The position numbers were made by a program, and so were the translations under genes. DNA of 59,499 nucleotides from a virus. Its lineage: Duplodnaviria > Heunggongvirae > Uroviricota > Caudoviricetes. Of the stretch, positions 35,137 through 35,447 are shown in pieces (positions within the stretch are counted from its first letter, which is position 1; each line of letters starts with the position of its first letter). The notes below the pieces were generated by a model, which had not been told where the DNA came from, ran no database searches, and saw only the letters and a program-made list of their open reading frames with translations. The DNA lies in IMG/VR virus record IMGVR_UViG_2874945390_000008. One strand, given 5' to 3'.

Positions 35137-35211
35137 TGGAGCGGGCAGCGGGAATCGAACCCGCATCATCAGCTTGGAAGGCTGAGGTAATAGCCATTAT
35201 ACGATGCCCGC
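35137..35211 (-). tRNA. tRNA-Gly (anticodon UCC)
   Basis: rc = GCGGGCATCGTATAATGGCTATTACCTCAGCCTTCCAAGCTGATGATGCGGGTTCGATTCCCGCTGCCCGCTCCA. Confidence 0.85.
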
Positions 35212-35214
35212 ATA

Positions 35215-35290
35215 TGGTGCCGACTACCGGAATCGAACTGGTGACCTACTGATTACAAGTCAGTTGCTCTGCCTGCTGAGCTAAGTCGGC
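35215..35290 (-). tRNA. tRNA-Thr (anticodon UGU)
   Basis: rc = GCCGACTTAGCTCAGCAGGCAGAGCAACTGACTTGTAATCAGTAGGTCACCAGTTCGATTCCGGTAGTCGGCACCA. Confidence 0.85.
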
Positions 35291-35292
35291 GC

Positions 35293-35369
35293 TGGCCCAC
35301 CACCGAGGACTCGAACCTCGCACCGTCAACTTAGAAGGTTGATGCTCTATCCGGATGAGCTAGTGGTGG
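35293..35369 (-). tRNA. tRNA-Arg (anticodon UCU)
   Basis: rc folds with acceptor CCACCAC/GTGGTGG, anticodon loop CTTCTAA, T-arm CGAGGTTCGAGTCCTCG, CCA end. Confidence 0.75.
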
Positions 35370-35370
35370 T

Positions 35371-35447
35371 TGGTGGCCCTTGCTGGACTTGAACCAGCGA
35401 CCTGGCGATTATGAGTCGCTCGCTCTGACCAACTGAGCTAAAGGGCC
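35371..35447 (-). tRNA. tRNA-Ile2-like (anticodon CAU; tRNA-Met not excluded by anticodon alone)
   Basis: rc = GGCCCTTTAGCTCAGTTGGTCAGAGCGAGCGACTCATAATCGCCAGGTCGCTGGTTCAAGTCCAGCAAGGGCCACCA, close to ileX as I recall it. Confidence 0.8.

Follow-up and report, generated by a model that had tools for sequence, protein, structure and literature searches.

Why would a temperate phage keep transfer RNA (tRNA) genes of its own just ahead of its lysis genes, and whose translation would they serve? The question is raised by the IMG/VR record IMGVR_UViG_2874945390_000008, a sequence of 59,499 nucleotides assigned to the Caudoviricetes that we analyzed over its whole length and refer to as the window, in which four tRNA genes follow one another closely at positions 35137-35447. 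We consider it probable that this cluster is a phage-borne operon of four tRNAs for A-ending codons that compensates for codon use, situated in the "moron slot" of lambdoid phages, past the Q-controlled late terminator and before the lysis genes. The cluster looks intact and is a variant, in composition, of a phage tRNA cassette of known kind. It is carried by a prophage that is very probably defective, and comparison of its upstream sequence among relatives indicates that it probably has its own promoter.

Four intact tRNA genes and phage codon usage

ARAGORN, run on the full 59.5-kb window, called exactly four tRNA genes, all on the minus strand (35447-35137), and all four matched the Rfam tRNA covariance model (gathering score 29) at 56-70 bits, with E values of 1e-9 to 1e-13 that are far beyond chance. 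Along the cluster they are separated by spacers of 1, 2 and 3 nt:

35371..35447, minus strand: tRNA-Ile2 (CAU), ileZ type (ARAGORN; Rfam 70.5 bits)
35293..35369, minus strand: tRNA-Arg (UCU), AGA/AGG decoder on the phage argN scaffold (ARAGORN; Rfam 56.4 bits)
35215..35290, minus strand: tRNA-Thr (UGU), thrU type (ARAGORN; Rfam 69.8 bits)
35137..35211, minus strand: tRNA-Gly (UCC), glyT type (ARAGORN; Rfam 64.9 bits)

An earlier reading of this DNA (the original prediction) had named the same four tRNAs at the same coordinates, tightly packed with 1-3 nt spacers on the late-gene strand, which is the minus strand of the window, and both programs confirmed it. The anticodons it had read by hand are those reported by ARAGORN, and in the test that it had named in advance the tRNA predictors did fold all four genes.

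Stem-by-stem bookkeeping showed intact cloverleaves in all of the genes and disabling changes in none (0/4). The imperfections found were one mismatch in the T-stem of Thr and one in the D-stem of Gly, both within sequence identical to host genes, and an A27.C43 mismatch in Ile2 that is phage-specific, ileY having a G27.U43 wobble at that position. When each tRNA was folded by itself for minimum free energy, Ile2 and Thr did not come out as cloverleaves; this is normal for unmodified tRNA sequences, and for this reason we relied on the covariance model and explicit stem bookkeeping. The CCA ends are encoded in the genes, 1-3 nt from the next gene. The anticodon loops CUCAUAA, CUUCUAA, CUUGUAA and CUUCCAA are those of ileY, argU, thrU and glyT, respectively, and none of the four loops in the window is a variant of the kind found in nuclease-evading phage tRNAs.

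Alignment of each gene with K-12 and phage reference tRNAs established what the genes are. The CAU gene, which ARAGORN labels "Met" on the anticodon alone, is identical at 74/77 positions to ileZ of Shiga toxin (Stx) phages, at 71/77 to ileY and at 69/77 to ileX, but at only 54/78 to metT. Its acceptor stem, GGCCCUU/AAGGGCC, contains C4:G69 and C5:G68, where metT has U4:A69 and A5:U68, and the former are the pairs by which E. coli TilS separates tRNA-Ile2 from tRNA-Met (PMC11947777). An identical gene in E. coli FDAARGOS_944 carries the RefSeq annotation tRNA-Ile. By these features the CAU gene is a tRNA-Ile2, predicted to decode AUA after lysidine modification, and its length of 77 nt and D-loop, AGUUGGUCA, mark it as a phage-specific isodecoder.

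The Arg gene shares its acceptor and T-arm with argN. It is 64/77 identical to Stx argN and 65-66/77 identical to the "Lys" genes of PhiR47_1 and PPompW, compared with 58/79 to host argU; an origin as a copy or orthologue of argU is ruled out by this difference (58/79 versus 64-66/77 to members of the phage argN scaffold). The gene begins with C1:G72, all four of its stems are Watson-Crick paired, and it has A20, U33, C35, U36 and G73; the D-loop AUCCGGAUA, which contains A20, the loop CUUCUAA and G73 are as in argU. The identity set of E. coli ArgRS is A20, C35 and U36, and with this set and a canonical anticodon loop the gene has the features predicted for argU-like function. The Thr gene is 74/76 identical to K-12 thrU, the differences being T-to-C changes (U-to-C in the RNA) at D-loop positions 16 and 20, and the Gly gene is identical to K-12 glyT over its whole length (75/75), in agreement with the prediction that these two would be nearly identical to their host counterparts.

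The codon usage of 31 phage late genes was compared with that of positions 80-130 kb of K-12, using the same simple gene caller on the window and the host segment, plus the annotated coding sequences of that segment. Per 1000 codons, the late genes use AUA 9.9 times (2.9 in the host sample), AGA 4.9 times (0.8), ACA 13.7 times (5.2) and GGA 16.2 times (7.1), so that the phage uses the cognate codons 2-6 times more than the host sample. Together the four account for 44.7 per 1000 codons in the late genes (gene bootstrap 36-55) versus 16.1 in the host (12.5-20.3). When the 59 synonymous codons are ranked by the ratio of phage-late to host relative synonymous codon usage, AGG is 1, AGA 2, AUA 3, CGG 4, GGA 5, ACA 6, CGA 7 and GGG 9, whereas CUA shows no enrichment (3.3 vs 3.8). 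The tRNA set corresponds unusually cleanly to the codons that the phage over-uses most.

That AUA and AGA are rare in the host, as had been supposed, is borne out by the K-12 core sample, where ACA and GGA are likewise rare. It had also been supposed that these codons are common in AT-rich cargo, naming ipaH and a nuclease moron, and here the outcome was divided. An open reading frame (ORF) at 10884-12059 (minus strand) that encodes a nuclease-like HSDR_N protein (type I restriction domain), a moron of 35.5% GC inserted among genes for baseplate and tail, makes heavy use of AUA, AGA and ACA (36, 23 and 33 per 1000, with no GGA), but ipaH has 49% GC and, with 40 cognate codons per 1000, is close to the average for the phage. 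Enrichment extends over the whole late region and is not special to cargo; the terminase large subunit alone contains 17 AUA codons.

Relatives and origins of the cassette

Cassettes of tRNA genes behind Q are well known from Stx phages, and the finding mostly confirms expectation. The comparison made here uses the GenBank annotation of Stx2a_F349 (AP012530) together with background on these phages. The ileZ-argN-argO cassette of this phage, which we take to be that of Stx-converting lambdoid phages of the 933W/Sakai type, lies in the same slot, after Q/tR' and before cargo and lysis genes, on the late strand. Gene 1 is homologous (74/77 with ileZ), gene 2 is built on the argN scaffold (64/77), the promoter-like motif upstream of ileZ is the same as in the window, and both cassettes decode rare codons. 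The two differ in the anticodon of gene 2, which is UCG in Stx argN and UCU, reading AGA, in the window. They also differ in what follows, since argO (46/77 to the window gene) is replaced in the window by Thr(UGU)-Gly(UCC) and no toxin genes come after. Genes for tRNAs also stand directly downstream of Q in SfI, Sf6, ST64T and P21 (Asn/Thr), SfI having a Thr(UGU) gene together with an ACA codon bias (PMC3636060); we liken these to the window by genomic slot only, as their composition (Asn-Thr) differs.

An overall identity of 93% is seen in the Ile2-"Lys"(UUU)-Thr-Gly cassettes of E. coli prophages and phages, represented by PhiR47_1, vB_EcoS-689R5 and vB_EcoM-606R7, which have the same four slots, the same 1/2/3 nt spacers and the same Gly gene. 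Their slot 2 has UUU, C33, A51.C63 and U73, in contrast to the UCU, U33 and full stem pairing of the window. In deposited phage genomes no match to the window form exceeded 93.6%. About 600 of 5426 complete E. coli genomes have at least 80% of the cluster, six of them at 99% identity or more, and a scan of IMG/VR by the argN T-arm pattern gave at least 120 loci. Among the matches listed, the "Lys" form is the commonest (64 Ile2-Lys(UUU)-Thr-Gly), 19 are Ile2-Arg(UCU)-Thr-Gly and the rest fall into smaller classes. Each of the four tRNA sequences of the window occurs unchanged in at least 20-22 IMG/VR loci, and the identical four-gene haplotype in at least about 20. Shigella flexneri SFBU1023 has three cassettes, two of the Arg type, identical to the window, and one of the Lys type, and E. 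coli ECMA0423 also has three; compared over 8 kb, the three SFBU1023 loci all lack collinearity with the window. Many loci share with the window the tRNA genes only, the flanks being unrelated.

Variation among these relatives bears on how the genes are maintained. The C16/C20 form of Thr is found in at least 22 loci and a compensatory Gly variant, C6:G67 to U6:A67, in at least 14, and the Arg scaffold of relatives has A3:U70 versus G3:C70, again a compensatory change. Such changes indicate purifying selection on the tRNA fold. Slot 2 of the relatives behaves differently. Most E. coli prophages have it annotated as Lys(UUU), and in this "Lys" gene the near-universal U33 is replaced by C33, residues A51 and C63 are mismatched and position 73 is U; some copies also have U8C or have lost part of the D-arm (our loci L003, L008, L014 and others). 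Either the gene is decaying or the tRNA is an unusual one that possibly evades nucleases. Adaptive "anticodon switching" was considered for the variety of anticodons on the argN scaffold and set aside, the UUU forms there looking like one lineage with signs of relaxed constraint. In slot 3, at least five IMG/VR loci (L055 and L113 among them) have a thrU-derived tRNA with the anticodon UUU for UGU, and other scaffold members have UCG or UAU. Because UUU, UCG and UAU are seen on the same scaffolds, anticodons evidently change on fixed tRNA bodies in this cassette.

The four genes do not share one origin. The Ile2 and Arg pair belongs to the ileZ/argN lineage of Stx phages. Thr and Gly have the sequences of the host thrU-tyrU-glyT-thrT operon upstream of tufB, and stand in the same relative order, which had led to the suggestion that a fragment of this operon was captured. 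Alignment to the operon did not show such a capture. BLAST similarity starts at the first base of Thr and stops at the last base of Gly, with homology confined to the mature tRNAs; tyrU, thrT, the host spacers of 8 and 116 nt and both host flanks are missing. The phage Thr-Gly spacer, TAT, is unrelated to host sequence and 3 nt long, compared with 209 nt from thrU to glyT in the host. The Thr-3nt-Gly unit also stands alone, behind stxAB in phage phi467 and behind DUF1133 in a prophage of E. coli, and, alone or combined, it was found in prophages of E. coli, E. ruysiae, S. flexneri, Citrobacter braakii and Enterobacter hormaechei (at least four genera). Because the pair occurs alone as well as combined and has its own phage variants, we interpret it as an established phage module of host type and not as a demonstrable operon fragment. 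The boundaries are compatible with acquisition of Thr and Gly as exact mature-tRNA units, which may have come about by RNA-mediated or conversion-type capture rather than from a DNA fragment of the operon.

Candidate expression signals and proposed explanations of the cassette

On the minus strand the order of elements is a tR'-like terminator, a promoter-like site, the tRNAs and then the genes for holin, lysozyme and Rz, with two structured RNAs between tRNA-Gly and the holin gene:

35536..35564, minus strand: intrinsic terminator (tR'-like), GAAAGAGCCCGC-UUUAU-GCGGGUUUUUUU; free energy (dG) -18.7 kcal/mol, z -3.35, 0/200 shuffles fold as well
35457..35486, minus strand: candidate sigma-70 promoter, TTTGCA-18-TATTAT, from a consensus scan; the -10 element ends 9 nt before tRNA-Ile2
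35019..35108, minus strand: branched (four-way junction) RNA, candidate operon 3' end or terminator; closing stem GCACUG/CAGUGC and three hairpins, then UCUUUUUU
34940..35017, minus strand: long hairpin (about 30 bp), conserved, located after the tRNA operon and before the holin gene; dG -48 kcal/mol, z -7.0

The 60 nt upstream of tRNA-Ile2 were compared in at least 115 loci, reduced to 13 representatives less than 75% identical to each other. The pattern TTGCAx-17/18-TATTAT-9nt-tRNA is kept in 11 of the 13, with spacers that vary, and it is present in phages whose Q genes are unrelated, in most cases closely preceded by a terminator. This conservation suggests that the cassette has its own promoter, and argues for one that travels with the tRNA module rather than a Q-specific late promoter. 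Of the host genes, ileX has TATAAT 10 nt ahead of the tRNA, and ileY is unclear; a promoter common to the cassette and host ileX/ileY is weakly supported. Divergent relatives have a terminator at the corresponding position. In the window, an isrK-like match below the threshold (19.9 bits; 35537-35610, minus strand) ends in this tR'-like terminator, which suggests that isrK-type small RNAs (sRNAs) are short leader transcripts from the late promoter in this phage group.

The four-way-junction RNA starts about 25 nt past tRNA-Gly and ends in a U-run. In nine divergent homologues its topology is kept, with compensatory changes at 10 of 28 pairs and an invariant closing stem, and it may serve as terminator of the tRNA operon or form its 3' end. 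The long hairpin is found at 72-100% identity in 35 loci, Thr-Gly-only prophages included. Neither RNA matched an Rfam family. The sRNAs PasA and PasC have been described in this genomic slot (PMC8550237), which also houses Hfq-bound sRNAs (PMC4104026), and a blastn comparison of PasA/PasC of E2348/69 with 34400-35300 gave no significant match. A site at 34878-34859 was considered as an operon-end terminator and dropped, as it folds no better than shuffles (z +0.29).

With these elements, compensation of codon use would proceed as follows. The cassette would be transcribed from its own sigma-70 promoter, ending 9 nt before tRNA-Ile2, and on induction Q-modified RNA polymerase would also read through from the late promoter. 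From what is known of how polycistronic tRNAs mature, and given that CCA is encoded and the spacers are 1-3 nt long, RNase P would be expected to cut the polycistronic precursor at each 5' end, and 3' exonucleases to trim the 1-3 nt past the encoded CCA. Host TilS would turn C34 of the CAU tRNA into lysidine, and host IleRS, ArgRS, ThrRS and GlyRS would charge the four tRNAs. The outcome would be more of the low-abundance decoders (AUA; AGA/AGG; ACA; GGA/GGG) and faster translation of late proteins and acquired cargo. The same functional logic underlies the pRARE and CodonPlus plasmids, in which ileX, argU, glyT and thrU-type tRNAs boost the translation of foreign genes; those plasmids are engineered and add leuW, proL and others, whereas the window cassette is natural and lacks these.

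Several points weigh against this explanation. The match of the tRNA set to the codons is correlational, the host reference is a single 50-kb core segment of K-12 and not the genome of the actual host, and CGG and CGA, at ranks 4 and 7, have no cognate tRNA in the cassette. The promoter scan by itself is not above chance (3 sites vs 2.0 +/- 1.5 expected), so the promoter claim draws on comparative conservation only. Moreover, insertion sequences (IS) interrupt a head gene and separate Q from the tRNAs, and a function on the phage side is probably obsolete in this genome. Because the prophage is IS-disrupted, any present benefit would go to the bacterium and not to the phage. A rival explanation is lysogenic conversion, in which the cassette would be expressed constitutively from its own promoter and kept, in Shigella in several copies, for bacterial translation of AT-rich acquired genes (virulence plasmid, morons), not for phage late genes. 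The idea overlaps with compensation for the phage, and the difference is only who benefits. In keeping with it, the late terminator is followed by the conserved promoter-like motif, the tRNAs are intact though the prophage is IS-disrupted, SFBU1023 and ECMA0423 have three cassettes each, and the HSDR_N ORF, at 35.5% GC, uses AUA, AGA and ACA at 23-36 per 1000. However, the ipaH of the window is not AT-rich and its cognate codons are no higher than the phage average, and several copies may just mean several related prophages. We regard lysogenic conversion as possible but doubtful. Its fullest form seems to us unlikely: a self-promoted, Q-independent operon that is a lysogenic-conversion module, present in two or three copies per Shigella genome, aiding AT-rich acquired genes, and ending in an undescribed covarying four-way-junction RNA and a long hairpin, with Thr and Gly as mature-unit captures. 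If the cassette does have its own promoter, lysogens would produce prophage tRNAs, which could influence how acquired virulence genes are expressed in Shigella and E. coli.

The state of the prophage also invites the view that the tRNAs are neutral passengers, inactive relics that hitch-hike in a decaying element. An IS-riddled prophage would suit this, as would the decay of slot 2 in relatives (U8C, C33, A51.C63, D-arm deletion) and the relatives in which the 80 nt between tRNA-Ile2 and tRNA-Thr have the argN T-arm pattern but no ARAGORN tRNA. Against it, no disabling change was found in any of the four window genes, identical sequences occur in at least about 20 independent contigs, and the compensatory changes in relatives point to purifying selection on the fold; we consider inert relics improbable. 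We give as little credence to an anti-defense supply, by which the tRNAs would stand in for host tRNAs that anticodon nucleases (PrrC, colicin D, PARIS- or retron-type effectors) cleave or deplete during infection. Such a supply is a published hypothesis for T5 and mycobacteriophage tRNAs (PMC10264068; PMC11555353), and phage tRNAs are said to evade anticodon nucleases through loop mutations (PMC10264068). The commonest relatives do have a slot-2 "Lys"(UUU) with C33, and tRNA-Lys(UUU) is the target of PrrC. In the window, however, all four loops are host-identical and Gly is identical over its full length; because the loops are those of host isoacceptors, resistance to a loop-recognizing nuclease is not expected. 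A nuclease with specificity for Ile2, Arg-UCU, Thr-UGU or Gly-UCC is not known to us, and compensation explains the codon match better. Nuclease evasion through loop mutations does not fit the window but may be relevant to the C33 "Lys" variant of its relatives. A last alternative, that the tRNA sequences are homology islands or attachment (att) sites for module exchange or integrating elements, could draw on the many loci that share only the tRNA genes with the window, their flanks being unrelated, and on a 2026 preprint that takes tRNA matches near prophage Pas sRNAs as integration hot spots. But the cluster is internal to the late operon, shares its orientation and has signals for a promoter and a terminator; it is bordered by no integrase, att duplication or element boundary, and a role in recombination would be a side effect and not a function; we hold this to be very unlikely. 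We suggest that tRNA matches in prophage late regions should not be taken as integration sites; here they are clearly internal cargo of the late operon. Compensation of codon use in temperate lambdoid phages is supported by the clean codon match, at a time when the anti-defense view is gaining ground.

The surrounding prophage

Proteins of the locus were annotated with Pfam, RNAs with Rfam and IS copies by self-BLAST. The features flanking the cluster are:

37749..38423, minus strand: Q-like late antiterminator candidate, DUF1133 (PF06576, E 7e-108; weak Phage_antitermQ, PF06530, E 9e-6)
36407..37671, plus strand: IS3-family insertion sequence, 1265 bp, which splits the isrK/C4 module between Q and the tRNAs (self-BLAST)
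36348-36264, minus strand: C4 antisense RNA (Rfam), which precedes the ORF6N gene
35655..36212, minus strand: ORF6N-domain (P1 Ant-like) gene (PF10543, E 2e-20)
33283..34558, minus strand: lysis cassette of S21-type holin, lysozyme and Rz (PF04971, PF00959, PF03245)

The cluster lies, as predicted, between the Q-like region and the lysis cassette. On the minus strand DUF1367 and YbcO precede the DUF1133 Q-like gene, after which come an isrK/c4-a1b1 element, the IS3-family element, the C4 antisense RNA, the ORF6N gene and the terminator. The nearest gene upstream of the tRNAs is therefore the Ant-like ORF6N gene and not Q, the Q-like gene being 2.3 kb upstream, past the IS and a P1 immI-like module. 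The tRNAs are followed by about 580 nt of non-coding sequence and the lysis genes (S, R and Rz), and the genes for terminase, head and tail come next, reaching as far as ipaH (2229-3944, plus strand).

In the close relative E. coli FDAARGOS_944 the tRNA region is conserved at 97.9-99.7% identity, the 2.2-kb IS/immI block is absent, and the Q-like orthologue ends 190 nt before tRNA-Ile2. Homology between the two breaks at 35656, which suggests that the original PR' region has been replaced in the window; a by-eye search for a late promoter between the ORF6N gene and the terminator gave nothing convincing. The IS3-family element has three copies in the window, 98.5-99.8% identical, and an rve domain was identified in the transposase of one of them (1043-1861). 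An IS110-family element at 24728-26184 interrupts a DUF2213 head-region gene. The IS copies other than this one were located at 655-1909, 36407-37671, 55563-56816, 42345-43647 and 46512-47816. With IS110 in a head gene and these other copies, the prophage is very probably defective.

Among E. coli prophages, those closest to the region 22000-46000 are of enterotoxigenic strains, at about 96% identity over 46% of it, and their annotation includes an anti-CBASS Acb1-family protein. Three P1 immI-type modules (isrK, C4 antisense RNA, c4-a1b1) stand beside ORF6N Ant-like genes, at 36264-37729, 40790-40991 and 51053-51241, one of them being that split by the IS3-family element. Other sRNA matches in Rfam are CssrB at 1918-2100 (minus strand), which adjoins ipaH, sok at 39915-40087 (minus strand), with a hok-sized ORF at 39765-39977, RalA at 57153-57331 (minus strand), and, at the end of the window, the SraC/RyeA-SdsR/RyeB pair at 58893-59037.

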